64,000 nucleotides of DNA. It comes from an uncultured bacterium (GTDB lineage Bacteria; Verrucomicrobiota; Kiritimatiellia; RFP12; UBA3636). Location of the stretch: assembly GCA_902793555.1 (NCBI GenBank), contig CADBEF010000008.1:420-64419 (forward strand), read 5' to 3'. Made by a program: the position numbers and the translations under genes. The notes under the pieces were generated by a model. It had not been told where the DNA came from, ran no database searches, and worked only from the letters and a program-made list of their open reading frames with translations. Below are positions 11,065 to 38,406 of the stretch, piece after piece (the stretch's first letter is position 1; each line of letters starts with the position of its first letter).

Positions 11065-12384
11065 ATGAAACGAATCCTCCCGATCCTTCTCGTCCTCGCC
11101 GCCGCGCTCTGCGCCCCGCCCGCCGCCCGCGGCGCGGATCCCGCCGCGCCCTACGTTCCGACCTACGACGCCGAAACGGCGTGGTATTTGGGCGAGCTCG
11201 GCGTCACGAACCTTCTCGACGCCGGCATCACCGGCCGCGGCGTCCGGGTCGGCGTCATCGACTTCGGCATGGGCGACATCGTGACGGGAACGCGCACGAA
11301 CGTGCACTGCGCGGCGAAGGCCGGCCGGTCCCGCAAGGCCATGCACGGCCCGGCCGTCGAGGGCATCGTCGCCTCCGACGTCTACGGCATCGCGCCCGAA
11401 TGCGAGCTCTACGTCTACGACGACGGCGACGGCACCGTCGACGACCTGATCGCCGGCTTCGCCTGGTGCGCCTCGAACGGCTGCCGCGTGATTAACTACT
11501 CGGGCGGCGTCCACCGGTTCTCGCGGGGCGTCGTCGACCTTTCGGAGGAGGACGCCGCCGCGAAGCTGGAGGAGCTCCGCGACGCGGTCCGCGCGGCGAT
11601 GGGCGCGGGGTGCGTCGTCGTCGCGGCGGGCGGCAACGCGCCGAACGAGACGCTGACCTGCCCGCAGGACGTCGAGGGCGTGATCAACGTCGGCGGAATC
11701 ACGCGTTCGCGCCAGTCCGCCGGGCTCAACGACAACTGGTCGAAGGACTTCTGCGCCTTCGGCAAGGACGTGCCGGTCTTCGTCTCGCGCTCCGGCGCGA
11801 CCGGCCGGGAGAGCGGCTCGTCCTTCGCCGCGCCGATGGCGACCGGCCTCATCGCGCTCCTGCTGCAGCAGGAGCCCTCGCTCACGCGCGACGAGATCTA
11901 CGGCATCCTGGAATCCACCTCCGCGAAGCTCGCCGAGGGCCGCTCGAAGATCTACGGCTTCGGCCTCCTCCGGGCCGCGCGGGTCCCGGCGGACTACAAG
12001 CGCCAGGCCGCGTTCGACGCCGAGCGCGCCGCGTTCGTGCGCATGACCTCGGCCGAGCTCCTCAACGAGGGCCTCGGCTGGAACGCCGAGCGCGGCTTCT
12101 ACGAGGCGAAGATGCGTCCCGGCGAGTCGATCCGGCTGGAATACCGGGGCTTCCCCGGGAACGCCACCGACACCAACCTCTACTGGTACTGCGGCAACAT
12201 GCCGACCTTTTCGCCGATCGGCCTCGACCAGGTCCTTTCGATCCCCGCGAAGACGAAGCCCGGCGAGTTCCTCGTCTACGACGCCCGCAACGACGCGCGG
12301 CAGATCGTCTGCCGCCTCCGCGTCGACGTCGTCGCGCCCCCGCCCGCGGACTCGGCGCCCGCCGGCGCACCGTCGAAGCGCTGA
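11065..12384 (+). CDS. Subtilisin-like serine protease (S8), secreted
   Basis: Signal peptide. Asp in 'VGVIDFG', His in 'HGPAVEGIV', Ser in 'GSSFAAPMATG'. Preceded by 'catcccgaccATG'. Confidence 0.9.
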   Translation: MKRILPILLVLAAALCAPPAARGADPAAPYVPTYDAETAWYLGELGVTNLLDAGITGRGVRVGVIDFGMGDIVTGTRTNVHCAAKAGRSRKAMHGPAVEGIVASDVYGIAPECELYVYDDGDGTVDDLIAGFAWCASNGCRVINYSGGVHRFSRGVVDLSEEDAAAKLEELRDAVRAAMGAGCVVVAAGGNAPNETLTCPQDVEGVINVGGITRSRQSAGLNDNWSKDFCAFGKDVPVFVSRSGATGRESGSSFAAPMATGLIALLLQQEPSLTRDEIYGILESTSAKLAEGRSKIYGFGLLRAARVPADYKRQAAFDAERAAFVRMTSAELLNEGLGWNAERGFYEAKMRPGESIRLEYRGFPGNATDTNLYWYCGNMPTFSPIGLDQVLSIPAKTKPGEFLVYDARNDARQIVCRLRVDVVAPPPADSAPAGAPSKR

Positions 12385-21138: not shown

Positions 21139-24100
21139 ATGAAACTGCGATTTCTCCCCGCCGTCGCGATCCTCCTGTCCCTCCTCGCGCCCGCCGCGCG
21201 GGCGGAGGAAGTCACCCTCCCCGCCGGCTACGTGCCCGTCAACCTTGTCACGAACGTCGGCGGCTCCGCCTCCAGCGACACCAAATGCCTGAACAACAAC
21301 AGCTCGTATGGCGTCTCGAGGGCGTTCGACAAGAAATACTACTCCGACGACACGCGTTGGATCGGGCATGGTTCGACCTTTCCGCAGCACGCCGTCTGGA
21401 CCTTCCCGGACCCGACGATCGTGGACACGGTTCGCATCTACAACGCGAGCTACGACGGCGCCAAGCAGTCGCCATCCGATTTCACGATCGCCGGCTCGAA
21501 CGACGGATCGGACTGGACGACGCTCGACACGGAGTCCGGCGTGACGGGCTGGTCGGCCAATAAGTTCCGGACGTTCCAGTTCGTCAACCGAACGCCGTAC
21601 CTGAAGTATCGACTGGAGGTCACGGACGTGCAGGGCCACAGCCGCATGTCGATTTCGGAGATCGAACTGTACCGGGTCAACCAGGCGTCCTTCGACGTCG
21701 TTCCCAGCGGTTCGCCGGCAGTCGGCATCGATTCCTTCTCGACGGACTGGATCCTGGCCGTGGAAGAAGGTTCGACGGCGGACGCGGGGCTCGTCTGGAG
21801 CACGGACGACTCGTTCGCCACGGCCACGACGAATTCGCTCGGCACGGGTCTCGCGGCAGGCACGCGCACGGCGTCGCTCGCCGATCTCGAACCCGCCACG
21901 ACCTACTGGTGGAAGATCTACGCCGACAACGGGACGGACGTCGCCGAATCGACCATCGGTTCGTTCACCACGACCGGTTCGCCCCTGTTCGGCGCCGTGT
22001 CCGCCGCGTCGGACGGAAACGCCGCGTCCTTCTCCGTCGCGCTCGCCGAAGCGGCGCTCGGAAACACGCTCTCCACGTCCGTCTCCGTCCTCTACGGAAC
22101 GGACGGAGAAACCTGGACGGCGCTCCCCCTCGGTTCGTCCGCGACGCCGGCTGCGATGTCGGGAACGCTGGAGAACCTCGACTGGGGCACGACCTACCAG
22201 TGGTTCGCCCTCGCGACGGCGACCATGGAGGGCGGCCGCGTTCTCTCGACCTCGACCTCGACCAATTCCTTCACGACGCTCTGGGATGGCGACCTGTACG
22301 TCTCGAACGGCAACGCGAGCGCCGAGGCCCCGTACTCGACCTGGGCGACCGCGGCGCCGGACATCGCGACGGCGATCTCCCTCGCCACGGACGGCGCGAC
22401 GATCCACGTCGCGCCGGGACGCTACAAGATTTCGACGTCCCTTTCGCTGGCGAAGGCGGTCCGCATCGTCGGCAACGACGCCGATCCGTCCCGCGTCGTC
22501 GTGTCGAACACCGGGGATGTCAGCTATTCCGAACAGAACCACCGGTGCATCCGGATCGACCATGCCGGCGCCGTCGTTTCCGGCCTCGCGTTCGAGAACG
22601 GGAAGGTCTACGGGCAGGGCGGCAACGTCCTGATCGGCTCGAACGGCGGCATGGTCACCAATTGCATCCTCTCCGGCGGTTACGCCCGGAGCGGCACGTC
22701 TTCCGCCGGCGCGAACGTGTCGATCCAGGGCCCCGGACGGGTGACGCACTGCACGATCCTCGGCGGCTGGCAGAACAACTGCACCGGCTGCACGAAAACC
22801 TCCTCCGCCCACGTCGGACACGCGGACGCCCGCATGGAGAACTGCCTCGTCGACGGGTTCCGAGGGTCGGACGTCTCCTCGCAGGCCACAAAGAACGCCT
22901 GCGGAATCTACGTGGAAAAGGGCGTCGCCGCCAACTGCACGGTCGTGAACTGCACGTCGCCGTACACGGAGGCTTCCGGCTTCGCGGGCATCCTGATTCC
23001 GACGAACGACGGCCTGGCGCTGAACTGCGTGTCGGTCGCCAACGCGGACAGCAACGACACCGTCCGCGCGTTCGTTCCGTCGCAGGTTTCCCGGACCTCG
23101 CACTGCGCGTTCGACGCGATCGCCGGCGAGGCGGCCGTTCCGGAGGGCATGGCCGGCGCCGTCGTCGGGACGCCCGAATCGTTCTTCCCGCGTTTCGCGG
23201 ACGACGCCATCGCCGCCATCAAGTACCGACCGGGCCCCTCGAGCCCGCTCCTCGACGCGGGCGAGGACTACGCCCCGATGGCGGCCTTCGACCTCTCCGG
23301 GCAGCAGCCGCGCCGGGTCGGCGCTTCCGTCGACATCGGCTGCTACGAGGACGGGTATCTCGCCATCGAGGCGACGGGCGAGCCGACGGTCGGCCTCGAG
23401 TCGTTCGCGACGGACTTCGTCCTCGGGACGGACGTCCCCGCGGACGTCTGGATCGTCTGGAGCGCGGACGCGTCGTTCGCGGCCGCCTCGACGAACCGGG
23501 TCGCGGAAGGCGCCACGAACGGCGTCCACGAGGCGGCGGTCGGCGGACTCGCGACGGACACGGCCTACTGGTGGAAGCTCGTGGCGACCAACGGCGTCTT
23601 CGCGGTCGAGACCGCGCCGGCGTCGTTCCGGACGCTCGGCGCGCCGGTGATCGGCACCTTGTCCGAAGCCGTCTCCGGCCCGACCGTGACGTTCTCGGTC
23701 GACCTGGCGTCCGTCGCGCGCGACGCGCTCGGAAACGGCATCCGGACGTACGTCACCGTCTTCTGCTCGACGAACGGGACGGACTGGATCGAGCAGTCGC
23801 TCGGCTCCGCGATCCGGGCTCGGACGGTTCTCGGCGCCGCGACCCTTCCCAACGGGGTCTGGACGTGGTACGCCCGCGCCTCCGCCGAGTCCGGCGGACG
23901 GACGTTCGCGGCGGAAAGCGGGACGCGGACGTTCCGCGTCTTCCACAACGCGACGCCGCCGGCCGGCTTCCGCCGCGTCGACGTTGAGATCGCGTACGAC
24001 GGCGAGCCCGCCGAGGACATCCCCGTGCTGCTGCGCCTCTCCGAGGCGATCGAGGGCTTCCGCTACGCGGACGTCGCCAACGACGGCAGGGACTTCCTCT

Positions 24101-26730
24101 TCTCGGACGGCGACGGCAACCGCCTCCCCTTCGAGATCGACACGTGGAACCCGGAGGGCGAATCGCTCGTCTGGGTCCGGCTGCCCGTCTTCGCCGACGG
24201 CGCGACGATCCACCTCGACTACGGCGCCTCGGACGCCGACGGCACCGCGGACGCCGCGGACGTCTGGCGGCGCTATGTCGCCGTCTGGCACATGAACGAA
24301 ATCCGCACGGACGCCGCCACGGGCAGACGCTACACCCCCGACTCCTCCGCGAGCGGCTGGCACGCCTACAAGTCCGTCGAGGCGGATGCCGTGCCCGCGC
24401 CCGTCACCGTCGCGGCCGGCGCCACCGCGCAGCCGACGCCCCCGACCGGCAGGGCGATGAACGTCGCCTTCGGCGCGGGGAAGTCGGATACGTCCGTCGG
24501 CGGCTTCGCGGTCCCCGCGAGCCAGACCGCCTCCACGACGCTGAACGGCCCCGGTTTCACGCTTTCGGCCTTCGTCAACTCGCATCAGGCCGCGAACAAC
24601 GGCCGCTGCCGCGTCATCGCGTTCGGAAACGCCTACAACGACAAGGCAAATCTCGCGGTCGGCAGCGACAGGATCTACAGCATGGGATCCAACAGCCACA
24701 ACAAGACCAATCCGAAGGGCGCGACGGGCTGGGTCCACGCGGCGGCCGTCTTCGGTTCGCCGCGGTCGAAGATCTACGCCGACGGCGTCTGCCTTTCCGG
24801 CAACAACGACGGCAATCCCGACCTCGCGAGTCTCGCGCTCGACAAAGGCATCGGACTCGGCTGCTTCACGGACGGCACGCAAAGCCTCGACGGCTACATC
24901 GACGAGGCGCGCATCCGCAACGCCGCCTCGACCGCTTCGTGGGCCGCCGCCGAGTACGCCGCGATGGCGGACCCGGACGTCGTCCGCTTCGGCGGGGCGC
25001 GCTACCTCGAGATGCCGGTCCTCGAAGCGCCGCCTTCCCTGGCCTGGTACCGGAACGGGTTCGTCCACTCCGCCACCGTCGCCTACGGGCGCGGCGACGT
25101 GCTCCTCGCGACGGTCGACCTGTACGACGGTTCCGCGACCACGAACGCGGCGCACTCGTTCGATTCGGCCGCCTCGCTGCCGCAGGCGCTATCGGAGAAC
25201 GTCGAACTCCCGGAGAACCGGATGTACCGGGGCGTCGCGATTCTGCGCTCGCCGGACGGCTCGGAGGAAGATCTCGCGGCCGCCCGCGAGACGGTCTACT
25301 CCGGATCGATTTCCGTCACGTGGGTCCGGGACGCCGACATCGCGGCGATGACGCCCGCCATCGTCCGGCTTTCCCGCGCGGACACCGAGGCCGCGACCTG
25401 CGCGCCTCTCGAAGTGTCGTTCGCGCTTGCCGGCGAGGCGGTCTCGAAGGGCCTTGTCGAGCCCGTCGCGTCCGCGACGATTCCGGCCGGGGAAAGCTTC
25501 GTCGAGGTCGAGATCCGGCCGATCGCCCGGAGCGTCGTTCCCGGCGACTACCTCGCGACGCTGACGGTCGCGGGGACGAACGTCGCCCGTCCCGGCGCGC
25601 AGGTCGAGTTCGGCGTCCGCAACGCCGGCGCCGACCCCTACGTGCGCTACGTCGCCCCGAACGGCGACGACGGGAACGACGGCGCGCTCGCCACGACCCC
25701 CAAGCGGACCGTCGCCGCGGCCCTCGCCTCGTTCTCCGAGAACGCCCGGTCGGTGCTCTGCACGGTCCGCGTCGCCCCGGGCCTCTACCCGGTCTCCTCG
25801 CCGATCGTGCTCACGAACGCCGTCCGCATCATCGGCGACGACTCCGATCCGTCCCGCGTCGTCGTGTCGAACACGACGAACGTCGACTATTACAACCAAA
25901 ACCACCGGTGCATCCGGATCAACCATGCCGATGCCGTGGTTTCGGGAATGACGTTCGAGAACGGAAAAGACTACGGCAACGGCGGCAACCTCCGCATCGA
26001 CGCGAACGGAGGCATGGTCACCAACTGCATTCTGGTCAACGGTTACACGCGCGAAGGCAGCGATTCCGGCGGCGCGAACGTGGCGATCACGGGCCCCGGA
26101 CTCGTGACGCATTGCCGGATTCTCGGCGGCAGCCAGAACAACTGCAGCGGCTGCAAACGGGTGTCCTCGGTCTGTCTCGAGCATGCGGACGCCCGGATCG
26201 AGAACTGTCTCGTAAGCGGATTCCGGGGAGCGACGGTTTCCACCCAGCCAACCGTGGGATGCGCCGGAATCCTCGTCGACAAAGGAGCCGCGATCAACTG
26301 CATGGTCGTGGATTGCACGTCGCCCTACACGACGGCATCCGGCTTCGCGGGAATCCTGCTGTGGGCGAACGGTCGCGCCGTGGACTGCGTTTCGGTCGGC
26401 AACGTCGACAGCAACGGCACGGTCCGCGCGTTCATGGCGTCGCAGGCGACCCGCGCGATCAACTGCGCGTTCGACGCGATCGCCGGCGAGGCGGTCGTTC
26501 CGGAAGGCATGGTCGGCGCCGTCGTCGGCACGCCCGCGTCGTTCTTCCGCAACTACGCCCGCGGCGACTACCGCCCGCGCAGCGGCGGGCCGCTCGTGAA
26601 CGCCGGCGCGAACTACGAGCCGATGGCGGGCGTCGACCTCTCCGGCGTCCAGCCGCGCAAGGTCGGCTCCCGCGTCGACATCGGATGCTACGAAGCCTTC
26701 GCCGAAACTTCGATCCTGATCCTGAGATGA
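21139..26730 (+). CDS. Giant secreted multidomain protein (1863 aa): discoidin-like N-domain, Ig/FN3-like repeats, two right-handed beta-helix domains, DUF2341-like and LamG-like modules
   Basis: Signal peptide 'MKLRFLPAVAILLSLLAPAARA'. RBS AAGGAG 7 nt upstream of ATG. Beta-helix signature 'NQNHRCIRIDHAGAVVSG...GGMVTNCIL' occurs twice. Ends '...ETSILILR'. Confidence 0.85.
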   Translation: MKLRFLPAVAILLSLLAPAARAEEVTLPAGYVPVNLVTNVGGSASSDTKCLNNNSSYGVSRAFDKKYYSDDTRWIGHGSTFPQHAVWTFPDPTIVDTVRIYNASYDGAKQSPSDFTIAGSNDGSDWTTLDTESGVTGWSANKFRTFQFVNRTPYLKYRLEVTDVQGHSRMSISEIELYRVNQASFDVVPSGSPAVGIDSFSTDWILAVEEGSTADAGLVWSTDDSFATATTNSLGTGLAAGTRTASLADLEPATTYWWKIYADNGTDVAESTIGSFTTTGSPLFGAVSAASDGNAASFSVALAEAALGNTLSTSVSVLYGTDGETWTALPLGSSATPAAMSGTLENLDWGTTYQWFALATATMEGGRVLSTSTSTNSFTTLWDGDLYVSNGNASAEAPYSTWATAAPDIATAISLATDGATIHVAPGRYKISTSLSLAKAVRIVGNDADPSRVVVSNTGDVSYSEQNHRCIRIDHAGAVVSGLAFENGKVYGQGGNVLIGSNGGMVTNCILSGGYARSGTSSAGANVSIQGPGRVTHCTILGGWQNNCTGCTKTSSAHVGHADARMENCLVDGFRGSDVSSQATKNACGIYVEKGVAANCTVVNCTSPYTEASGFAGILIPTNDGLALNCVSVANADSNDTVRAFVPSQVSRTSHCAFDAIAGEAAVPEGMAGAVVGTPESFFPRFADDAIAAIKYRPGPSSPLLDAGEDYAPMAAFDLSGQQPRRVGASVDIGCYEDGYLAIEATGEPTVGLESFATDFVLGTDVPADVWIVWSADASFAAASTNRVAEGATNGVHEAAVGGLATDTAYWWKLVATNGVFAVETAPASFRTLGAPVIGTLSEAVSGPTVTFSVDLASVARDALGNGIRTYVTVFCSTNGTDWIEQSLGSAIRARTVLGAATLPNGVWTWYARASAESGGRTFAAESGTRTFRVFHNATPPAGFRRVDVEIAYDGEPAEDIPVLLRLSEAIEGFRYADVANDGRDFLFSDGDGNRLPFEIDTWNPEGESLVWVRLPVFADGATIHLDYGASDADGTADAADVWRRYVAVWHMNEIRTDAATGRRYTPDSSASGWHAYKSVEADAVPAPVTVAAGATAQPTPPTGRAMNVAFGAGKSDTSVGGFAVPASQTASTTLNGPGFTLSAFVNSHQAANNGRCRVIAFGNAYNDKANLAVGSDRIYSMGSNSHNKTNPKGATGWVHAAAVFGSPRSKIYADGVCLSGNNDGNPDLASLALDKGIGLGCFTDGTQSLDGYIDEARIRNAASTASWAAAEYAAMADPDVVRFGGARYLEMPVLEAPPSLAWYRNGFVHSATVAYGRGDVLLATVDLYDGSATTNAAHSFDSAASLPQALSENVELPENRMYRGVAILRSPDGSEEDLAAARETVYSGSISVTWVRDADIAAMTPAIVRLSRADTEAATCAPLEVSFALAGEAVSKGLVEPVASATIPAGESFVEVEIRPIARSVVPGDYLATLTVAGTNVARPGAQVEFGVRNAGADPYVRYVAPNGDDGNDGALATTPKRTVAAALASFSENARSVLCTVRVAPGLYPVSSPIVLTNAVRIIGDDSDPSRVVVSNTTNVDYYNQNHRCIRINHADAVVSGMTFENGKDYGNGGNLRIDANGGMVTNCILVNGYTREGSDSGGANVAITGPGLVTHCRILGGSQNNCSGCKRVSSVCLEHADARIENCLVSGFRGATVSTQPTVGCAGILVDKGAAINCMVVDCTSPYTTASGFAGILLWANGRAVDCVSVGNVDSNGTVRAFMASQATRAINCAFDAIAGEAVVPEGMVGAVVGTPASFFRNYARGDYRPRSGGPLVNAGANYEPMAGVDLSGVQPRKVGSRVDIGCYEAFAETSILILR

Positions 26731-27869
26731 AAACGCCTGTCCTTTCCGCCGACTTTCCCGGCGGCAACGTCCGCGTCCTCGGCATCGAGGGCGACACCGT
26801 CCACCTCGCGCCCGATCTGCGCGAGACGCAGCGCTTCTGGTTCTTCTGGCGCTTCCGCGCGACGTTCCCGGCCGCGGGGACATGGCGCTTCGAGTTCCCG
26901 GACGGCAATTGCGTCGGGACGCGCGGGCCCGCCGTGCGTCGAGCTGGCGAGCGTGCCTGGCGCTGGCTCTCCGGCGACGCGCTCCACGAGTCCGACCGCG
27001 TCTTCGAGTGGACGTCCGCCGGGACGGAGACGGTCGAGTTCTGCCAGTGCATCCCGTACCAGGGCGCGGACTTCGACGCGTTCGCCGCGTCCTTCGCGGG
27101 CGACCCGCGCGTCACGGTCGCCGAGCTCTGCCGCTCGCGCGCCGGGCGGTCCGTCCCGCTGCTCCGCCTGCGCGAAGGCGAGCCGGCGCAGGCGGTGCTC
27201 TTCACCTGCCGGCACCACGCGCAGGAGTCGATGGCGTCCTTCGCGCTCGAGGGACTGCTCCGCGCGCTCGCGTCGGACGAACCGTGGGCGGCGGCGTTCC
27301 GGGGCGCGTTCGAGGTCCTCGCGGTGCCGTTCGTAGACCGCGACGGCGTCGAGGACGGCACGCAGGGCAAGTTCCGCCTCCCGCACGACCACAACCGCGA
27401 CTACGGCGCGGCGGGCGGGCACCTCTACCCCGAGTGCGCGGCGCTCGAACGGCTCCTCGACGAGCGGCGGCCCGCCGCCGTGCTCGACCTGCACTGCCCC
27501 TACATCCGCGGCGGCGAGACGAACGAGCACGCCTACCTCGTCGGCATCCAGGCGGAGCGCCTGCGGCCCGCGCAGGCCGCCTTCGGCGCGCTGCTCGAGA
27601 GGCGCTGCCCGCCCGAGTCGCCCTACTTCGCCGCGGACACGCTCCCCTTCGGCGCGCTGTGGAACCAGCCGACCGACTTCTCCGGCGGCTCCGGCATGGG
27701 CTTCTCGCGCTGGGCGGCGGCGAAGCCCTGGCCGCGCCTCGCGAGCGGCATCGAAATCCCCTTCGCGAACTTCCGCGAGAAGACCCAGACGCCGGACACA
27801 ATCCGCGCATTCGGCCGCGGCATCGCCGCCGCCCTCGCCGAGTTTCTCGCTACGCCCGCAAGGGGTTGA
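26727..27869 (+). CDS. M14-like zinc hydrolase (carboxypeptidase / AstE-AspA-like fold)
   Basis: 'CRHHAQESMAS' (HxxE zinc motif), 'HDHNRDY', 'LDLHCPYIRGGE'. Start overlaps the giant gene stop (ATGA). No signal peptide. Confidence 0.65.
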   Translation: MKTPVLSADFPGGNVRVLGIEGDTVHLAPDLRETQRFWFFWRFRATFPAAGTWRFEFPDGNCVGTRGPAVRRAGERAWRWLSGDALHESDRVFEWTSAGTETVEFCQCIPYQGADFDAFAASFAGDPRVTVAELCRSRAGRSVPLLRLREGEPAQAVLFTCRHHAQESMASFALEGLLRALASDEPWAAAFRGAFEVLAVPFVDRDGVEDGTQGKFRLPHDHNRDYGAAGGHLYPECAALERLLDERRPAAVLDLHCPYIRGGETNEHAYLVGIQAERLRPAQAAFGALLERRCPPESPYFAADTLPFGALWNQPTDFSGGSGMGFSRWAAAKPWPRLASGIEIPFANFREKTQTPDTIRAFGRGIAAALAEFLATPARG

Positions 27870-28012: not shown

Positions 28013-28073
28013 GCCCAGACCATCCAGACCATACGACCATACGACCATACGACCATCTGACCATCCGACCATG
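28013..28073 (+). repeat. Leader repeat array: seven degenerate 8/9-bp units (cagaccatc cagaccata cgaccata cgaccata cgaccatc tgaccatc cgaccATG) ending in the start codon
   Basis: Preceded by the conserved module 'cggccgtacgccagcccaga', which recurs at 37465-37487. Confidence 0.9.
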
Positions 28074-31000
28074 AAACGCATCCTCCCGCTCCTCCTCGCC
28101 GCCGCGGCCCTGTCCGCCCGCGCCACGGTCCAAGGCACCGACTTCGAAAAGAAGATCGCCTTCACCCCCTCGTCCACCGCGCTCGCGAAGATCGGCGAAA
28201 CGGCTTGGGCGGACTTCCCCGTCCTCGTGCGGCTTCCGGCCGCCGTTTCGTCCCAGTTGCAGAGCGCGAATGGGACCGACCTTTACGTCGAGGATGAGAA
28301 CGAAGTTCCGCTTGCGTTCGAGGTCGAGTCGTTTGACCCGGCCGGCACGACGCTCGTCTGGGTCAAGGTGCCGTCGCTTTCGTCCGCAACGGTGCTCAAC
28401 GTTTTCTTTGGCGGTTCAGCGAACGCCGACAACGACCCGACCGCCGTCTGGTCGAACTACGTCGGCGTGTGGCACTTCCCCGGCTCGGCCGCCGGAACGA
28501 CGACCGTCGCCGACGCGACCGGACACTCGCTCGACGGCACGACGACGGGCACGATTTCGACCTACGCCGGCCCGTTCGGCGGCGACACTCTCCAATGCAC
28601 CGAGAAAATCAACGCGCCGGACTACGATTCGCTGCTCTCCAACGTCGCGCAGTTCAGCGTCTCCGGCTGGTTCAAGGCGCCGAACCAGAGCAACGCGTAC
28701 TTCACGTACGTCTCGAAGAAGGCTGACCTGGCCTGGAACGCCGACAAGGGCTGGTATCTTGAAATGTCCCAAAGCAAGACCAAGGCGAACCTGGTCCTGA
28801 CCGGCTCGAACAACTTCACCATTCCGGACGTTTCGGCGAACTGGAACTACTTCCACCTCGTTTCGGACGGTTCGACGGTGAAGGTCTACATGAACGGCTC
28901 CACGAGCGCATCCAAATCGGTATCCTACAAGGTCAAGGCGAGCAGCAAGGTCTTCCTGATCTGCGGCAAGGACGGCTGCTCCGACGAATACCGCGTCCGC
29001 GCCGGCGCTGCGAGCGCGGCGGAGACCGCGCTCGAATACGCGACGATGGCCGATGCGGCGTTCTTCGACGCCGGCGCGATCGAGTCCGTGGATGCAACGG
29101 CGCAGGTCTTCGAGACGCCGACCGCCGTGCGCAACGCGAACGGCTCGACTACGGTCACGGTCGTCCTCTCCGCCTACAATGGCGACGTGGGCGTGATCTA
29201 CGAGGGCGGCGAGACGCCCGTCACGAACATCGTCGCGAACGCCGCCACGCCCGGCACCTACACGGACACGCCGGCGAATCTGGCGGCGGACACGACCTAC
29301 GCATTCTCCGCCTACGGAAAGAACGCGAACGACACCGAGGTCGTCAAAGCGGGCAACATCTTCTACAACGGCGACCTCTCCGTCACGACGGTCTCGGACG
29401 CGAACGAAAGCGGACTCGTCCCCGGCGTCTTCCGCATCTCGCGCGCCGATTCGGCGCACAACCTTACAGTGACCTACACTGTCGGTGGAACCGCCGTTGC
29501 GGACCAGTCCTACGTCGCGCTTTCCGGCACGGCGACGATTCCGGCCGGCGCAACGTACGTGGACGTGACCGTGACGCCGCTCAACGACCCGACCGTCACG
29601 GAGAACGTGTCGGTTGCGCTTTCTCTTGCGTCCGGACTTTACGGCATCTCGGCATCTGCCGGCACGGCGACGATGACGATCGCGAACCTGAACGCCCCCG
29701 CCGGCTTCAACACGTGGGTCGCGTCCGCGGCAGGCCTTGCGTCCGTCAGCAACAACTGGTCCGCCGGCCACCCGCCGAACGCCTCCGAACACGCTCTCTT
29801 CGACGGTCGCTTTTCTTCGGCGAACTGCGAGTGGGACGCCGCCGCATCTGCAACGGTCGCCTCTTGGACGCAGACGAACGACTACGCCGGCGTGATCACG
29901 CTCAAGACGGTCTATCCCGGCAAGGGCGACTTCCAGTGCCTGACCGTGACAGGGCCGATGGCGGTCATGAGCGGCACCATCACCCACCCGCAGTCGCGGA
30001 CACAGGGCCAGAGTGCGACGGATTACCTGCAGGACCTCCTCGACAACGAGACCTACCGCGTCCGCATCGACGCAGGGTCCCTCGTCATCGGACCGGACGG
30101 CCGGATCGACGCCCTCAACAAGGGCTACTACCATTCCAACACCGGCAGCCACACGTCGCCCGAGCCTTCCCACGGCGGACGTCTCTCCGCGTCCGGGCAG
30201 GCCCCCTACGACGACGTCAAGGAGCCGATCCACATCGGCATGCCCTACAAGCGGGATAGCGGCACCTACTATATCGGCATCGGCGGCGGCGCAATCTATC
30301 TCACGTCGACCGGCGCCATCGTCGTGAACGGCTACATCGGGGCCGACACGGGTTCCGACACGTGGAACCGCGGCTACACGCTCCGCGGCGGCGCGGCGGC
30401 GGGCTCCGTCTATGTCCGCGGCGCCTCCGTCACCGGCTCCGGCACGATCTCCGCAAGCGCGCTGAAGACGGACGAGCAGAAGTACCGCGGCGTGGGCGGT
30501 CGCGTCGCCGTCATCGCCACCTCTTCGACGCCGATCGACTACACGACACTCCAGCTCAAGGCAACGGTCTATCCGTTCAACAACAACAACGGGCAAAGCT
30601 CGACATACGGCGGGTGCGGCACGGTCTTCGTCAAGGACGGCACGATGACGAACGGCGTCCTCATCGTGCGGAATTTCGACCTGACCTTCGCCGAAGACGC
30701 ATCTGGACGCCGGACCGATGTCACGGCCGAAGGCGACTGGACCTTCGATCGGCTCGAGCTGGGAGGAGGGGTGCAGTTGTCCGTTCCCTACGGAACGACC
30801 CTCACGCTCCCCGGCTGGGACTGCGTGACGGCCCCGGCCAACAACACCGGCACCGGAACGCCATCCGGGTTCATCTACCGGGGCGGAACGCTCGACTTCG
30901 GCTCCGCCGCGGAAGTCATGTTCTCCGGCCACTGGTATTTCGCCCCGATTTCGAACTACGTCTTCAACGCGGACGTCTCGCTCGCGGACGGCGCCGCGAT

Positions 31001-32000
31001 CGGCTTCGGCGGGAAATACACGCAAAAGATCGCCAACAACGCTTATCCTGACAAGCTCGACAAGATCCAGTGCACCGTGAACGGCAATCTGACTATCCCG
31101 TACGGGTGCTCCGTCAATGTCAACCAGGCCGGCGCCATGCAGGACAGCCACGGCGTGCCCGCTGACTACCCGCAGGGGGCGCACGGCGGGCGCCGCTCGA
31201 ACACGATGAAGACGATCGGCTCGGCGTTCCATCCCCGGACCTTGCCGCACGGTCAGTCGAACAGCTACGGATGGATCATCCCGGGAGGGGCGGTCGAGCT
31301 CGTAGTCTCAGGGACACTGACCCTCGGCGGCACCATTGAATCGACCGCCTACACTGGGAACGACGGCACCAAGTCCGAGGTCGGCGGCGGATCGATTGAC
31401 ATCACGGCCGGGCGACTTGCGGGCGACGGCTCGATCAAGGCGGGGGCCGTCAAGGACGGCCAGCCGGGCGGCCGCATCGCCATCCATCTGACGGGCGTTG
31501 GTGCAACGTTTGATGATTTCGATGGAGCTGTCAACTGCGCCACGCTGGGAGCTGGCAGCATAGGTTCATGCGGTTCGATCTACATAGAGACTGCAGCAGA
31601 CGGCGATAGGCGCGGAACGGTCATCCTTGACGACAACAACGTGACCTGCACGACCTACACGCCCATCTGCGCGACGGGCTACGAAGCGGATGACGTCGCC
31701 GACTTCCGGCACGCGGATCTCGTCGTCCGGAACCAGGCCAAGGCGCAGGTGGCCGTCGCCGACGACAAAGGGACCTTCACGATGGACAACGTCGAAATCG
31801 ACGAAACCGGCGCGCTCGACCTGTTCGGGAACCGCTTCGTCGTCACGTCCGCGAGGATCGGCGGAAAGAACGTCCATACCGGCACCTACACGGCCGCGCA
31901 GCTCGCCGCGCTCGGCTTCCCGCAGGTCGTCGACACCGACGAGAACGCCGCCGGAACGCTCGTCATCCGCGGCGCGGCGACGGTGCTCATCGTGAAATAG
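28071..32000 (+). CDS. Giant secreted DUF2341/LamG-like protein (1309 aa) with a C-terminal beta-helix-like region
   Basis: Signal peptide 'MKRILPLLLAAAALSARA'. 'VWVKVPSLSSATVLNVFFGG...VGVWHF' DUF2341-like module. Ends '...GAATVLIVK'. Confidence 0.85.
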   Translation: MKRILPLLLAAAALSARATVQGTDFEKKIAFTPSSTALAKIGETAWADFPVLVRLPAAVSSQLQSANGTDLYVEDENEVPLAFEVESFDPAGTTLVWVKVPSLSSATVLNVFFGGSANADNDPTAVWSNYVGVWHFPGSAAGTTTVADATGHSLDGTTTGTISTYAGPFGGDTLQCTEKINAPDYDSLLSNVAQFSVSGWFKAPNQSNAYFTYVSKKADLAWNADKGWYLEMSQSKTKANLVLTGSNNFTIPDVSANWNYFHLVSDGSTVKVYMNGSTSASKSVSYKVKASSKVFLICGKDGCSDEYRVRAGAASAAETALEYATMADAAFFDAGAIESVDATAQVFETPTAVRNANGSTTVTVVLSAYNGDVGVIYEGGETPVTNIVANAATPGTYTDTPANLAADTTYAFSAYGKNANDTEVVKAGNIFYNGDLSVTTVSDANESGLVPGVFRISRADSAHNLTVTYTVGGTAVADQSYVALSGTATIPAGATYVDVTVTPLNDPTVTENVSVALSLASGLYGISASAGTATMTIANLNAPAGFNTWVASAAGLASVSNNWSAGHPPNASEHALFDGRFSSANCEWDAAASATVASWTQTNDYAGVITLKTVYPGKGDFQCLTVTGPMAVMSGTITHPQSRTQGQSATDYLQDLLDNETYRVRIDAGSLVIGPDGRIDALNKGYYHSNTGSHTSPEPSHGGRLSASGQAPYDDVKEPIHIGMPYKRDSGTYYIGIGGGAIYLTSTGAIVVNGYIGADTGSDTWNRGYTLRGGAAAGSVYVRGASVTGSGTISASALKTDEQKYRGVGGRVAVIATSSTPIDYTTLQLKATVYPFNNNNGQSSTYGGCGTVFVKDGTMTNGVLIVRNFDLTFAEDASGRRTDVTAEGDWTFDRLELGGGVQLSVPYGTTLTLPGWDCVTAPANNTGTGTPSGFIYRGGTLDFGSAAEVMFSGHWYFAPISNYVFNADVSLADGAAIGFGGKYTQKIANNAYPDKLDKIQCTVNGNLTIPYGCSVNVNQAGAMQDSHGVPADYPQGAHGGRRSNTMKTIGSAFHPRTLPHGQSNSYGWIIPGGAVELVVSGTLTLGGTIESTAYTGNDGTKSEVGGGSIDITAGRLAGDGSIKAGAVKDGQPGGRIAIHLTGVGATFDDFDGAVNCATLGAGSIGSCGSIYIETAADGDRRGTVILDDNNVTCTTYTPICATGYEADDVADFRHADLVVRNQAKAQVAVADDKGTFTMDNVEIDETGALDLFGNRFVVTSARIGGKNVHTGTYTAAQLAALGFPQVVDTDENAAGTLVIRGAATVLIVK

Positions 32001-32327: not shown

Positions 32328-35300
32328 ATGAAACATCCGTTCGCTCTCGTTGCGGCCGCGCTTCTCGCGGGCGCGCTCGTTCTCCCCTCCGCGCGCGCGG
32401 CGGACGCGGACGCCACCGGCCTCGTGCCCACGATCTGGTGGGACTTCGAGACCAAGCCCAGCGCCTCGGGCCTCGCCACGGCGAACAAGGGCGCGACCTA
32501 CCAGGCGGGCGTCACGAACGGCTGGGCCGTTGACACGTCGAAGTTCACGCCGTATTCGCAGGCGAACGGCGCCTTCTCGACGGCCGGCGGCGCCTACACC
32601 GTGTCCCTCGTCATGAACCTCGGGACGACCAAGAACGGCATCACGCTGAACCTCCGCAATGAAACCGGCGAAAGGGACCTGATCGTCCGCCGCGGTTCGA
32701 CCGCGGGCTCGCTCGTCGTCGGCTGCGACGTCTGGAAGGTCGCCACAAGACACAATCTCACGACGACGTTCGAGGACGACTCGACCTACCATCTCGTCTC
32801 CGTCGTCGTGGAGGAGTCTGGCTTCTCGCTCTACGTGGACGGCGAGTTCGTCGGGTCCGAGACGGGCTTCACCCTGTGGACCGCCACGGGCCGCGCCAGC
32901 CGCCTCCAGTTCGGTGCGCACCTCAGCGGCATGCCCTCCGGCGAGGCGAAATACGGCGGCTGCATCGACGACCTGCGCATCCACGACGCGGCGCTCACGC
33001 CCGCGCAGATGAAGCTGATCGCCGCCGAATACGGCCTTGCCTCCATCGATGGCTTCATCGCCGTCGTCCCGTCCGGGGAACCGACGGTCGGAACGGATTC
33101 CTTCCGCGCGCCGTTCGCCCTGCGCGTGCCCGAGGGCGACGCGGCCGAGGCCGCGATCGTCTACGGCACGGACGCCGCGCTGTCGGCCCCGGCCACGAAC
33201 GTCGTCGGTTCGGCGCTGACGGCCGGCAACTACGAGGCGTTGCTTCCCAATCTCGTGTCTGGCACGACCTACTGGTGGAAGATCGTCGCGAGCAACGGCG
33301 TCAACCGGGCCGAGACGGACGTTGCGTCATTCCGCACGCTCGACGTGATCGTCCCGACGGACTACGCCAGGCGCATTCCCGCCGTCCTCTCCGGCTATGC
33401 CGGAACGGATACGCTCACGAATTTCCCCGTTCTCGTGAAGCTCGCGGCGGACGCGCCCATCGGCTTCGACTACGCCGACTGCGCGGAGGATGGCGCGGAC
33501 ATTCGCTTCGCGACTCCGGACGGCACGGTGCTGCCGCACGAGATCGACACGTGGAACACGAACGGCGAGTCGTTCGTCTGGGTGAAGATCCCGGCGATCT
33601 CCGGTACCGCTACGGCGTTCTCGATGTACTACGACGCGCCGGACCCGGCGGCGCTTCCGCCGGTCGATCCGCACGACGTCTGGACCGCGGCCGGGCACCG
33701 CGCCGTGTGGCACTTCGCGACAAACGCGACGGAATCCGCGCAGGGTCTGGTCGCCTCCACGGCCACCGGCACGCCGTCCTACGCGAACGACGGCGCCGTC
33801 GGCAAGTGCTGGCAGAGCGCGGGCGAGGCGTGGTTGCAGTACGCCAACGACGCCTCGTGGAGCGCACTCGGCGCGGGTTCGACGCTCACGATTTCCACCT
33901 GGGCCAAGTTCGACTCCACTTCCTATGGCTACAACCGCATCCTCTCCACGATGTCGACCTGGGAACAGCCGGCCGGCTACGAATTGACCGTCCAGGACGA
34001 CAAGAACGAGATCACCGTCGGATCGAGCGGGAAAAGCCAGTACCAGAAGGTCGTTTCGCCGGGCCCGTCGGACGAGATGGTCTACCTCACGGCCGTCTAC
34101 AACGCCGACCGCTACGCGGACCTCTACGTGAACGGCGTCCGGCAGGAGCACAAGCAGCTCAACGCGGTCGTGCAACCGACGGAGACGATGACGGTCGCCT
34201 GTTTGGCCGGCGGCGGCAACGTCTGGAACGGCTCCCTGGACGAGCTCCGCCTCCACGCGGCCGCCGAATCGGCCGACTGGGTCAAGGCCTGCTACGACAC
34301 GATGGCGACGCCGGCGTCGTTCGTCGCCCTCTCGCCGGCCGAGTCGACCGACCCCGACCTGCCGCGGTTCGGCGCGCTCTCCGCGTCCGATGCGAACGGC
34401 GTCGCAACCTTCACCGCTCCGCTCGCCGTGCCCGGCTACGGCGGCGAAGTCCCGACCTCCGTCTCGGTCTTCTACGGGACGGACGGCGAAACCTGGACGG
34501 AGCTTTCCCTCGGTTCGACGAACGAGGCCGCGACGCTGACCGTCTCGGCGTCCGGGTTCGCGGTCGGCGTCCGGTACCTCTGGTACGCCGTCGCCACCGC
34601 GACGAGCGGCGGCACGCCCAAGACGACGGTCTCCCAGCCGCAGTCGTTCGTCGCCAGGGCCTTCGATCCGACGGGGAACTACAAGTCCTTCACGGCGACC
34701 GTCGTCTGGGACGGCGCGCCCGCGGAGAACCTCCCGTTCCTGCTGCGCATCTCCGAGGGCGGCGTCAACGGCTTCGACTACGACGACGTCACGGCGTCCG
34801 GCCTCGAGATCCTCGACGCGGACGGACAGCTGCTTCCCTTCGAGATCGACACGTGGAACACGAACGGCGAATCGCTCGTCTGGGTCCTCCCGCCCGTCTA
34901 CGAGGACGGTGCGACGGTCACGGTCCGCTACGGCGCCCCGTTCGCCAACGCGCCGCTCCCCGCGACGAACGTCTGGACGGCCTATGTCGCCGTGTGGCAC
35001 ATGAACGAAATCCTCGTGGACGCCGAGTCCGGCAACCACTACACGCCCGATTCCACCGCGAGCGGCTGGCATGCCTTCAAGTCCGACGAGGCGGACGCCG
35101 TTCTGTCGCCTGTGACAACCGCGCCCGGCGCCTCCGCGCATCCGACGCCCCTCACCGGAACGGCGATGAACATCGCCTACGGCGCAGGGAAGTCGAGCTC
35201 GTCCCTCGGCGGCTTCCGCGTCCCGGCGGACCAAACCTCCTCGACCACGCTGGACGGCCCCGGCTTCACGCTCTCCGCCATCGTCAACTCGCAGCAGGCC

Positions 35301-37375
35301 GCCAACGACGGCCGCTGCCGCGTGATCGCCTTCGGAAACGAATACAACGACAGGGCCAACTTCGCGGTCGGCTCCGACAAGATCTACTGCATGGGATCCA
35401 ACTCCCACAACAAGACCAATCCGAAGGGCGCGACGGGCTGGGTCTACGCCGCGGACGTCTTCAACTCGCCGTATTCGAAGATCTACGCCGACGGCGTCTG
35501 CCTTTCCGCCAGCAACGAGGGCAACCCCAACCTCGCTAGCCTCACGCTCGACAAGGGCATCGGCCTCGGCTGCTTTACGGGCGGCAAACAGTGCCTCGAC
35601 GGCTACCTCGACGAGGCGCGCATCCGCAACGCGGCTTCGACCGCCGACTGGATCGCCGCCGAATACCACACGATGGCGGACGGCGCCGTCTCCTTCTCCT
35701 CCGTTTCGTCATCCGACACGTCCGTCCCCGTTCTCGGGACGCCGTCCGTCGCGCGCAACCCGGACGGCTCGTTCACCGTCTCGGTCGCCGTTTCCGAAAA
35801 CGACCCCGCGTCGATCGCCTGCATGATCGGAGGGACCGACTACGCGATGACGCCCGCGAACGCATCGCTCCCAACGACGTATTCCGCCACGGTTTCCGAT
35901 CTCGCGCCCGGCACCTACGTCGCGTCCGTCCATGCGACGGCGACGAGCGGAACGTCCGTTTCCTCGACCTGCCCGGACGCCTTCCACGCCGGAGCGCTGA
36001 CGATCGTAAAGATTTCCGACGCCGACGAAGGCACGCTCTCGCCCGGCGTCTTCCGTGTCTCGCGTGCGGACGCCGATTCCACGAGCCTGCCGGCGCTGAC
36101 GTTCGACGTGGCGTTCTCCGGCCCCGGGCTCGCCGGGATCGCCGATCCGGGGATTTCGGCCGCCACGATCCCCGCCGGCGCGGCGTATGTCGACATCGCC
36201 GTCACGCCCATTCCGAACGATGCCGTGAACGAGAATCTCGAACTCGTCCTGACCGTCTCGGGCGCGCACGTCGGCCAATCCTCCACCGCCTCGCTGACCG
36301 TCGTGAACTCGAGTTTCGACCTGGCGGTCCGCTACGTCGCCACGACCGGCAACGACGCCAACTCCGGCGGCACGCCCGAGTCTCCCAAGAAGACGATCGC
36401 CGCCGCCGTCGCCGCCCTCGGCCCCATCGCGCCGACGCGGACCTGCACCGTCCACGTCGCGCCGGGGCTGTACCCGATCACGTCGCCGATCGTCGTCACG
36501 AACGCGATTTCCGTCATCGGCGATGATTCGGACCCTTCGCGCGTTATCGTATCGAATACAGTGCCAAGTGGCAACGCAAGCCAGGAACATCGGGTGTTTA
36601 TCATTGCGAATGCCGACGCTCTTATAGCCAACCTGACGATGCAGAAGGGCGAAGCCTACAGCCGGAACGGGGGCAACTTCAACATCGGCACGGCTGGCGG
36701 CATGGTTTCCAATTGCGTGGTGGAAGCGGGCTATGCACGCGACAACGGAAAGGCGGCCGGTGCCTGGCTCGATGCGGGCGTCGTCACGCACACGGTCTTC
36801 CGGAAGAACTATTCGAGTGCCGGATCCGTCACCTGGGAGGGCGTTCGTGCGGGGCTTCTCCAGCTCAACGGCCAGGCCCGCGCCGAAAACTGCCTCTTCG
36901 TCCAGAACAACCAGACCGCATCCGTCCGGCTGATCAACGTGCACGGCTCCTCGGTCATGCGCAACTGCACGATCGCCGATTCGTCCCTTTCGAAGACGAA
37001 TGACGCCTGCACGACGTGGTGCGTACTCAACATCGCCTCCGGCGCGACCGTGCAGAATGTCGTGATCGCCGGCGTGACGAACACGATCGACGGCGCGACC
37101 TGCGCGATCACGGGGACCGTCGCGAACTTCCGGAACGGCGCGTTCGACGGCGACGCGACACGGCGGCTTCGTTCTTCCCGCACTACGCGAAGAACGTCCC
37201 CTACGCGATCAAGTACCAACCCAAGGCCGGCGGCCCGCTCTACGACAAGGGCGCCGACTACGCGCCGATGGCCGCGTTCGACCTCTCGGGGACGCAGAAG
37301 CGCAAGATCGCCTCGCATATCGACATCGGCTGCTACGAGGCGAACGGAGCTGCAACGGTGGTCATCGTGAAATGA
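32328..37375 (+). CDS. Giant secreted LamG/DUF2341/beta-helix protein, paralog of 21139-26730. Carries an apparent -1 frameshift near 37155-37170, so it is a possible pseudogene or a sequencing error
   Basis: Signal peptide 'MKHPFALVAAALLAGALVLPSARA'. Main frame runs to ~37160 ('...NGAFDGDAT'). The authentic C-terminus '...ASFFPHYAKNVPYAIKYQPKAGGPLYDKGADYAPMAAFDLSG...GCYEANGAATVVIVK' is in the -1 frame (ORF 37016-37375). Relative to the paralog, a ~45-nt, non-triplet deletion sits at this point. Confidence 0.6.
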
Positions 37376-37458
37376 ACCCCGTCCTTTCCGCGGACTTTCC
37401 CGGCGGCGGCGCGGTGGTGCTCGGCCCCGACGGCGCAACCGTCCGCCTCGCGAACCCA
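37372..37458 (+). pseudogene. Remnant of the M14-like gene 5' end (first ~29 codons: 'MNPVLSADFPGGGAVVLGPDGATVRLA'), fused in-frame to the downstream leader repeat and GH16 gene
   Basis: Nucleotide and protein homology to 26727-26815 ('MKTPVLSADFPGGNVRVLGIEGDTVHLA'). Homology ends at ~37458, where the 'cgtacgccag...gaccatcc' leader module begins. Confidence 0.6.
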
Positions 37459-37483
37459 ACGCCCATCGTTCGGTCGTACGCCA

Positions 37484-37512
37484 GTCCAGACCATCCGGAC
37501 CATCCGACCATG
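37484..37512 (+). repeat. Leader repeat (cagaccatc cggaccatc cgaccATG) ending in the GH16 start codon
   Basis: Same family as 28013-28073, with the same upstream 'cggtcgtacgccagtcca' module. Confidence 0.9.
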
Positions 37513-38406
37513 GACACTTCACTCGACTCCCTCCCCCTCGTCTGCGAAACGGCGGACGCCGTCCCCGGCCACGAGCCGAGCCTGCTGCCGCCCGGGCGGA
37601 AATGGACGCTCGCCTGGAACGACGAGTTCGACGGCGACCGCCTCGACGAGACGAAGTGGCGCTTCCGCACGAACTTCTGGGGCCGCCGCGCGCACTGGTT
37701 CGCGACGCCGGAGGACGGCGCCGTCGAGGTCCGCGACTCGCTCTGCCGGCTCAAGCTCGTGAAGAAGCCCGACGGACAGTTCGTCACGCCGCAGCTGCAG
37801 ACCGGCGAGCTCGTCTGGGACATCCCGCACGAGAAGGAACCGAAGGGCTTCTGGCCGCTCCCGAAGCGCGAGCCGCCGACGTTCATGCACCGCTACGGCT
37901 ACTACGAATGCCGCTGCCGCACGCAGCAGATGCCGGGCTGGTGGACGGCCTTCTGGATGCAGGCGCCGATGCAGGGCTGCTCGCTCGACCCGCGCCGTGC
38001 GGGCATCGAGCACGACATCATGGAGTCGTTCGAGCCGGGGACTCTCATCCCGCACTACTTCCACGCGAACGGCTACGGCGACGACTACGCCCCCTTCCAC
38101 ACGCCCCGCGCGGCGGAGATGAGCGACACGCTCTCGTTCGACAAGGCCGCCTTCCACCGCTTCGGGATGCTCTGGGAGCCCGACGGCTACACGATCTACA
38201 TCGACGGCCGCCAGCACGGCGAGAAGGTCGGCGGCGGACCCGGCGAGGCCGTCTCGCAAACCGAGGAGTTCGTCCTGATCTCCGCCGAGGCGAAGTGGTA
38301 TCGCGACCGCCACATGACCGGCGAGGGCGTCCCTGAGCTCGAGGACGCCTGGCGCGCCGGCGACGCCTTCCTCGTCGACTACGTCCGCGTCTTCGATCCC
38401 GCCTAG
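37510..38406 (+). CDS. GH16 beta-glucanase-like protein (no signal peptide)
   Basis: GH16 catalytic motif 'GIEHDIMES'. 'WTLAWNDEFDGDRLDETKW' N-terminal region is typical of GH16. Start placed at the ATG ending the leader repeat; an in-frame upstream extension to 37372 exists (see the pseudogene remnant). Confidence 0.8.
   Translation: MDTSLDSLPLVCETADAVPGHEPSLLPPGRKWTLAWNDEFDGDRLDETKWRFRTNFWGRRAHWFATPEDGAVEVRDSLCRLKLVKKPDGQFVTPQLQTGELVWDIPHEKEPKGFWPLPKREPPTFMHRYGYYECRCRTQQMPGWWTAFWMQAPMQGCSLDPRRAGIEHDIMESFEPGTLIPHYFHANGYGDDYAPFHTPRAAEMSDTLSFDKAAFHRFGMLWEPDGYTIYIDGRQHGEKVGGGPGEAVSQTEEFVLISAEAKWYRDRHMTGEGVPELEDAWRAGDAFLVDYVRVFDPA

Follow-up and report, generated by a model that had tools for sequence, protein, structure and literature searches.

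A 64,000-nucleotide stretch of DNA from an uncultured bacterium of the Kiritimatiellia (contig CADBEF010000008.1; this whole stretch is referred to below as the window) encodes four giant exported proteins, g1 to g4, which end in a common short tail of hydrophobic residues closed by a lysine or an arginine. The window has a G+C content of 69.6%, contains about 25 real genes after filtering on third-codon-position G+C (GC3), and is a glycan- and protein-utilisation region. All four giants have signal peptidase I (SPI)-type signal peptides and a DUF2341 domain in common, and LamG domains are present in g2, g3 and g4. A preliminary description of this DNA had suggested that the tail is a novel C-terminal recognition and processing signal, trimmed by an M14-like hydrolase encoded immediately downstream of g1. 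The tail does prove to be a conserved, modular and non-random element that corresponds to no known tag, but the proposed processing by the M14-like enzyme does not stand. Judged from sequence, the tail is best classed as a C-terminal sorting or docking tag, unusually short and lacking a transmembrane segment.

A short tail at the extreme C-terminus

A six-frame scan of the window for the pattern [STA][IVL]x4[KR]-stop gave exactly four matches, each of them the end of a giant open reading frame (ORF; Table 1). This bears out the earlier observation that the tail is found on every one of the four giants, in the case of g3 by way of the reading frame kept in a sister metagenome assembly, L001, and the accompanying remark that smaller proteins lack it, as none of the other ~21 GC3-supported genes carries the tail. 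As read in the window, g3 has a main frame that stops at 37370 (…QRWSS-stop), and the tail sits in another frame. L001 is otherwise 99-100% identical to the window, from which 33 nucleotides are missing in frame within g3 and a further 28 nucleotides are missing near its end, the latter causing the frameshift. The L001 copy of g3 is intact and encodes 1702 residues ending in GAATVVIVK; in the window, g3 is thus a pseudogene or else an assembly variant lacking its tail.

From composition, the chance that any one protein ends in the motif as it was first described is 2.9e-6. Across the 18,676 residues of the window proteins this motif is found at C-termini only (0.05 expected). The sequence of g1 contains an internal repeat and has a segment in common with g3, which indicates that the giant genes have recently undergone duplication and recombined with one another. 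Chance or simple paralogy as the origin of the tail is ruled out by a ~14,000-fold enrichment at C-termini and by the non-homologous domains that stand before the tail.

Searches with g2 and g4 returned 237 proteins, about 208-217 of which end in the tail; the relatives without it are mostly evident truncated or frameshifted fragments, and the tail is kept in homologues of both giants down to ~30% identity. In 391 retrieved relatives (549,379 residues) the consensus comprises seven residues, G-[T/F/L]-x-[I/L]-[I/L/F]-[V/L/I]-[R/K]-COOH, and the strict heptapeptide was counted in 165 cases at the very end of a protein and in 16 cases inside one, where shuffling predicts 7. Position by position in 208 carriers, glycine is found at −7 (133/208), T, F or L at −6, a variable but mainly hydrophobic residue at −5, I, L or V at −4, I, L or F at −3, and V, L or I at −2. 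The last residue is R in 159, K in 32, W in 8, Q in 7 and L in 2, that is, basic in 191 of the 208. Hydrophobicity at −2, −4 and −6 is invariable and the final basic residue nearly so, and a linker of about 4-5 residues separates the tail from the last folded domain. Amphipathic variants such as …ELCIRLR and …KLHISIR retain the hydrophobic −2, −4 and −6 residues together with the terminal arginine, which is the signature expected of a β-strand with one obligatorily buried face.

The C-terminal module of g1 gives a similar picture. A HMMER search with its last 300 residues against 1.84 billion cluster representatives produced 921 matches at E≤0.001. Among the best 150 of these, 148 were newly retrieved (representatives at ≤50% identity), and 133 of the 148 passed the strict test for the tail. 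A looser test was passed by 135 of the 143 representatives that carry a G[CA]xE motif, and in 129 of these 143 the distance from the conserved DIGCYE to the C-terminus is 11-12 residues.

Two departures from the consensus were seen among g4 relatives. A Gly_rich_2 subfamily ends in …TM[IL][IL]VW, with tryptophan replacing the basic residue (P0178, P0199-P0201, P0204, P0205, P0207, P0209 and L124 10001-15805), and may represent a second specificity class of the tag. Separately, P0198 and P0160 are 99% identical over 1060 residues and then diverge abruptly, P0160 ending in the tail and P0198 in a transmembrane helix followed by RRRKK. Either the anchor was swapped naturally or the assembly is chimeric, and because of the latter possibility P0198 was left out of the evidence.

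The tail is strictly C-terminal and independent of the domain that stands upstream of it. At least eight unrelated contexts precede it: …ITQIWYRPPPQA-, …LVVxGGG-, …DIGCYExxxx-, …YAVTVTKKGNAG-, …FRFWGYKDTGRG-, …VVIRVKKFDKIG-, …LLDLTGxxPR- and …SASxAxSAxxG-. Carriers range in length from about 380 to over 3100 residues, and eight that were found without reference to homology have neither DUF2341 nor LamG. The initial impression that the tail belongs to giant or DUF2341/LamG proteins was thus too narrow, since there are carriers of about 380-750 residues without those domains. An N-terminal hydrophobic, signal-like segment is present in 201 of 208 carriers. The signal-peptide-bearing glycoside hydrolases (GHs) and esterases of the same loci have no tail, however, and the tail therefore marks a subset of exported proteins. 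Carriers can be densely packed, with four in the 64-kb window and five in 24 kb of another locus, L126. In the latter (1-21214) the five tail proteins have differing domains (F5/8-type-C, Flg_new_2, or no Pfam domain), and their genes are interspersed with those for GH28, a cellulase and a deacetylase.

Structure prediction places the tail apart from the domain before it. AlphaFold2 models of the last 450 residues of g2 (from a 46-sequence alignment) and of g4 (from a 32-sequence alignment) are both β-rich, with mean predicted local distance difference test (pLDDT) scores of 82.8 and 86.8, respectively. The final 10 residues score 66 in g2 and 50 in g4 and have no secondary structure, compared with ≥94 for the previous 80 residues of g2 and 92-95 for the previous 30 of g4. 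On the strength of these models, the tail is predicted to lie outside the monomer fold. Fold searches with both models gave weak, non-significant matches, mostly to β-helix proteins (autotransporter passengers, tailspikes, tāpirin), and no β-propeller or barrel was among them.

All named homologues are from Kiritimatiellia. A look-up of cluster taxonomy named one cluster in ten, again Kiritimatiellia, and a profile search with DIGCYE plus the tail returned mainly short fragments, adding one relevant organism name, that of a Kiritimatiellia choice-of-anchor Q protein. When DNA encoding GFSIIVR-stop was scanned for across 185,579 GTDB species genomes, 40 matches were obtained, near the number expected by chance (estimated at ~80). 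Thirty-six of these lie in ORFs of <70 residues and are read as chance; the other four end ORFs of ≥448 residues and come from three Kiritimatiellia metagenome-assembled genomes and one contig labelled Lachnospira hominis. Among 1031 ORFs of ≥150 residues, drawn from 522 kb of metagenomic loci that are unrelated, the sole tail match was a close relative of g1. From these sequences, the tail appears so far to be confined to Kiritimatiellia. The Lachnospira-labelled contig (CAVCJC010000033.1, 51% G+C; L113 445-4949) encodes two tandem proteins of ~750 residues with signal peptides, both ending in …RVGSAGF[AS]IIVR, and is probably Kiritimatiellia DNA misbinned into a Lachnospira genome.

Table 1. 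Giant genes, adjoining genes and rearrangements in the window, with positions in nucleotides
Feature	Position	Strand	Length	Tail codons	Six-frame match	Description
g1	21139..26730	+	1863 aa	26710-26727	26710-26730, SILILR-stop	Signal peptide MKLRFLPAVAILLSLLAPAARA; F5/8-type-C, DUF2341, β-helix segments, two choice-of-anchor-Q modules; ends …DIGCYEAFAETSILILR
g2	28071..32000	+	1309 aa	31980-31997	31980-32000, TVLIVK-stop	Exported; DUF2341/LamG/β-helix; ends …GTLVIRGAATVLIVK
g3	32328..37375	+		37355-37372	37355-37375, TVVIVK-stop	DUF2341/LamG; frameshifted in the window; L001 copy ends …DIGCYEANGAATVVIVK
g4	49190..54550	-	1786 aa	49193-49210	49190-49210 (minus strand), TVLIVK-stop	Exported; DUF2341/LamG/FN3; ends …ITQIWYRPPPQATVLIVK
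M14-like gene	26727..27869	+	380 aa			ATG (26727) overlaps the g1 stop TGA (26728-30) as ATGA
Chimeric gene	37372..38406	+	344 aa			First 27 codons copy the M14-like N-terminus, remainder a GH16 domain; ATG (37372) overlaps the g3 stop TGA (37373-75) as ATGA
Repeat inside g1	22451-23348 and 25814-26693		~900 nt			77% identity
Segment common to g1 and g3	23998-24972 and 34710-35681		~980 nt			81% identity
In-frame gap in g3	32491/32492		33 nt			Present in L001 (15766-15799)
Frameshifting gap in g3	37158/37159		28 nt			Present in L001 (20466-20494)
Exported S8/C10 peptidases	11065-12384 and 15374-17275					Near tail-bearing giants

Elsewhere the window encodes glycoside hydrolases (GH94, GH16, GH20, GH10 and GH2), a polysaccharide deacetylase, S8 and C10 peptidases and an AraC-family regulator.

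The M14-like gene and its duplicated junction

The start codon of the M14-like gene overlaps the stop codon of g1, and the ATGA described earlier is indeed present at 26727-26730. Its product belongs among the M14 metallocarboxypeptidases, with the zinc motif HHAQE (HxxE), the motifs HNRD (NRD) and DLH, and a match to PF00246 that is marginal but above the cut-off (22.5 bits against 21.6). By phmmer it matches PDB 3l2n (E=1.6e-8) and also 4b6z and 3k2k, which are bacterial proteins of the cytosolic-carboxypeptidase type, the alignment to solved M14 enzymes spanning the N-terminal 240 residues including the N-terminal β-sandwich region. Like these M14D proteins, it has a β-sandwich N-terminus and HxxE and lacks a signal peptide, although it differs from them in being a divergent match. 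From its motifs, the enzyme could be active.

The family of the M14-like protein is widespread, with 466 confirmed relatives in sediment, soil and gut metagenomes of 41-73% G+C. Synteny was examined at the loci of the best 80 of these (L002-L081, 522 kb). At a single locus, L004 (77% identity), a tail gene lies upstream of the M14-like homologue, 65 nucleotides away and without overlap; the remaining 79 of the 80 loci have no upstream tail gene, and at L002, the homologue of which is 84% identical to the M14-like protein, a different gene is found in that position. Conversely, no M14 gene was found near the other tail genes examined.

The second coupling, described as a remnant following g3, is of the same kind in that an identical ATGA overlap is present there, joining g3 to a gene that as annotated has no signal peptide, whose first 27 codons copy the M14-like N-terminus and whose remainder encodes a GH16 domain. 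However, the g1 and g3 junctions have ~80% DNA identity, which runs from where the giant gene ends, across the ATGA, to ~80 nucleotides into the downstream gene; there the g3 side switches to GH16. Such homology indicates one segmental duplication of the g1/M14 junction, so that the g3 overlap provides no independent evidence of coupling.

The model in which a translationally coupled M14-like enzyme removes the terminal lysine or arginine as a maturation step has in its favour that the overlap is real, that the HxxE, NRD and DLH motifs are kept, and that a tail gene also precedes the gene of the 77%-identical relative. Against this, the protein has no signal peptide and its closest structures are of cytosolic type, yet its supposed substrates are Sec-exported; linkage to tail genes is missing at nearly all homologue loci, including the 84%-identical one, and in the opposite direction around other tail genes; and the g3 junction is a duplicate. 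Lys/Arg-specific trimming is further disfavoured because tryptophan, glutamine or leucine is the terminal residue in some subfamilies. Carboxypeptidase-B-type processing by the M14-like enzyme can thus be set aside on grounds of compartment, lack of conserved synteny and the duplicated junction, and we find the model scarcely credible. Instead, the sequence evidence identifies the M14-like gene as an incidental, recently duplicated neighbour and not a demonstrated part of the tail system.

Exported S8/C10 peptidases are the only exported proteases that were found near tail genes. They lie near tail-bearing giants at two unrelated loci, the window and L122 (5465-8932), a closeness that may be coincidental.

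Possible roles of the tail

The tail is carried by a large subset of the Sec-exported proteins of glycan-utilisation loci, namely those of β-helix, lectin-like and adhesin-like type. We give about even chances to the reading in which the tail is a modular C-terminal β-strand tag of Kiritimatiellia that is recognised in trans by a common receptor. The tail would join, as a β-strand, a pocket or sheet edge of this one receptor, which would also read the free basic C-terminus. Binding would then direct the carriers across the outer membrane or retain them on it, making the tail a sorting or anchoring signal. By analogy, the most concrete candidate for the receptor is a minor pseudopilin of the GspK/PilK type, from the type II secretion system (T2SS) or type IV filament machinery.

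The analogy is drawn from the pilus-associated proteins PilC/PilY1, the C-terminal strand of which has been shown experimentally to be required for pilus assembly (Ellison et al. 2026, PMC12918778). In AlphaFold modelling, the C-terminal peptide of PilC/PilY1 complements the β-sheet of a PilK/GspK-family minor pilin and is deeply buried in a PilJ groove, and the extreme C-terminus of the ~1200-residue MshQ is predicted to dock likewise (PMC12918778). Repeated reports connect DUF2341 with tip adhesins and with the loci of type IV pili (PMC4858521, PMC10133366, PMC11809585). A tblastn search of plasmids for a relationship to MshQ gave only matches of the DUF2341 or MotA-TolQ-ExbB type, with no MshQ, and does not bear on the analogy either way. 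In the cultured species Kiritimatiella glycovorans, the genome-based list of translocation and secretion systems comprises Sec, Tat and T2SS, the last being the only outer-membrane protein-secretion route listed (PMC5148204).

In its most specific form, this analogy would have the tail docking between GspK/PilK-like and GspJ/PilJ-like minor pseudopilins, with the giants acting as interchangeable tip adhesins or as pseudopilus cargo. The PilC/PilY1 and MshQ strands provide the precedent (PMC12918778), a strand buried on both faces would fit the non-alternating hydrophobic run of the tail, the tail is free in the monomer models, DUF2341, a domain tied to type IV pili, is found in all four giants, and a T2SS is listed for K. 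glycovorans. Docking of this kind is nevertheless unlikely. The genes pilY1 and mshQ adjoin minor-pilin genes, but no ORF with a prepilin motif was found in ~190 kb around tail genes, with the window and 11 Kiritimatiellia loci searched, and there are many carriers at a locus where a pilus system would have one. The eight carriers found in an unbiased way have no DUF2341. The giants have no Pfam PilC/PilY1 domain and no PilY1-type β-propeller, the weak fold-search matches being mostly to β-helices. Lastly, the C-terminal strand that E. coli GspK supplies in cis is dissimilar in sequence to the tail. A dedicated receptor might also be superfluous, were the tail the last β-strand of a cis hairpin capping the terminal domain, or were it to pair between molecules into fibres or a surface layer. 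Each upstream context does take the form of a β-strand, a turn of 4-8 residues rich in G/N/P/K and then the tail, the distance from DIGCYE to the end is nearly fixed, and the amphipathic variants are hydrophobic on the −2/−4/−6 face only. We judge these structural roles improbable, however, as the tail is unpaired in two models with mean pLDDT >82, a single pattern following non-homologous domains would be unneeded for purely local packing, and the strict terminal position and basic last residue indicate that the terminus itself is recognised. The bacterial and mitochondrial β-signal, of which the consensus resembles G-x-x-Φ-x-Φ followed by one residue, offers a further comparison, whereby a similar strand would be read by the β-barrel assembly machinery (BAM), the translocation and assembly module (TAM) or a partner β-barrel, tethering passenger-like β-helix proteins to the outer membrane. 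The tail resembles this consensus, and the nearest, albeit non-significant, fold matches of the g2 model are autotransporter passengers; but its terminal residue is basic and not aromatic, its hydrophobic register is off by one position and its carriers have no barrel domain, which leaves this explanation very unlikely.

Recognition of the tail in trans by a common receptor has several points to contend with. Low pLDDT may equally mean that AlphaFold2 missed packing of the strand in cis, and a structural role could explain why the C-terminus falls a fixed 11-12 residues after DIGCYE. The apparent taxonomic restriction derives from about a dozen named proteins together with a single heptapeptide scan. 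In addition, no receptor, processing enzyme or secretion gene was found beside the tail genes when ~190 kb of Kiritimatiellia DNA flanking them was examined, the neighbours being glycoside hydrolases, esterases and regulators.

A broader proposal is made more tentatively, as something possible but short of probable. The tail may represent a previously unrecognised sorting and surface-display system of the Kiritimatiellota, in which a 7-residue tag without a transmembrane segment and a dedicated receptor reading its free basic C-terminus, perhaps at the tip of the T2SS pseudopilus, route a substantial share of the large extracellular proteins. In guts, sediments and oceans, the Kiritimatiellota rank as major degraders of complex glycans, sulfated ones included. 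If the tag is phylum-wide, it would provide a simple sequence rule by which the surface and secreted proteome could be predicted from metagenomes, as well as a handle, through peptide baits or phylogenetic profiling, for locating the machinery. If the tail docks on pseudopilus tips, the newly described principle of β-strand complementation would come to cover a whole family of cargo and not just one adhesin, and with the T2SS tip as receptor the secretion machine would become a platform for the exchangeable display of glycan-binding giants. The outcome also dispenses with a functional link to the M14 peptidase that was tempting but mistaken.

Comparison with known C-terminal signals

When the last 150 residues of each giant were compared with the sorting-domain models of Pfam and NCBIfam (June 2026), none matched at E≤10, in agreement with the preliminary view that the tail fits no known sorting tag. 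Nor did a full-text search of the literature on Kiritimatiellia sorting signals, DUF2341, LamG and secretion signals yield a description of the tail. The only terminal matches are to choice-of-anchor-Q (NF041518, cut-off 25 bits), and are sub-threshold, scoring 22.4 bits in g1 and 18.1 bits in g3 and ending 10 residues before the C-terminus; an internal module of g1 (residues 698-737) exceeds the cut-off at 36.6 bits. This domain family is named for standing before varied C-terminal sorting signals, so that in g1 and g3 the tail lies where such a signal would be placed.

LPXTG, PEP-CTERM and GlyGly-CTERM resemble the tail in being lineage-restricted C-terminal tags on dozens of otherwise unrelated exported proteins, in consisting of a small-residue motif, a hydrophobic stretch and one or more basic residues, and in being placed after choice-of-anchor domains. 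Unlike them, the tail has 5-6 hydrophobic residues in place of ~20, a single basic residue, and no PEP, LPXTG or GG signature or hidden Markov model (HMM) match. As 5-6 hydrophobic residues cannot span a membrane, signals of the sortase, exosortase and rhombosortase types, as defined, are excluded, and the short stretch together with the missing signature and HMM match makes an intramembrane processing enzyme unlikely. Individually, PEP-CTERM would call for a PEP motif, a ~20-residue transmembrane helix and an Arg-rich cluster, none of which is present, and has no NCBIfam match; the C-termini have neither an LPXTG motif nor the transmembrane helix of a sortase signal; and for GlyGly-CTERM/rhombosortase a glycine at −7, often as GGG, is present, but no membrane-spanning stretch follows and no HMM matches.

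In having several carriers at one locus, the tail resembles the cargo of PEP-CTERM or of the type IX secretion system (T9SS). The C-terminal domain (CTD) of T9SS cargo is likewise a C-terminal signal on large β-helix, lectin and adhesin proteins of glycan-degrading bacteria, read after Sec export. It is, however, a folded β-sandwich of ~70-100 residues, whereas the conserved element here comprises 7 residues that are unstructured in the AlphaFold2 models, and no CTD model matched. We know of no report of a T9SS in the Kiritimatiellota. Like the tail, the outer-membrane β-signal is a β-strand at the end of a protein, with hydrophobic positions and, a few residues upstream, a glycine; it is read by β-augmentation. 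Its last residue is aromatic and it forms part of a barrel; the tail ends in R/K, after β-rich domains without a barrel, and is not a member of this class.

The closest parallel in design is provided by PilC/PilY1 and MshQ. As in the tail carriers, a strand of ~6-12 residues forms the very end of large, adhesin-like proteins that are exported by Sec and vary in their N-terminal parts. In PilC/PilY1 and MshQ this strand acts in trans by β-strand complementation. The tail has the corresponding features of a short strand, strictly terminal and unpaired in both AlphaFold2 models. The tail carriers differ from PilC/PilY1 and MshQ in being many to a locus, in having no adjacent minor-pilin genes and no β-propeller, and in sharing a sequence consensus that ends in R/K.

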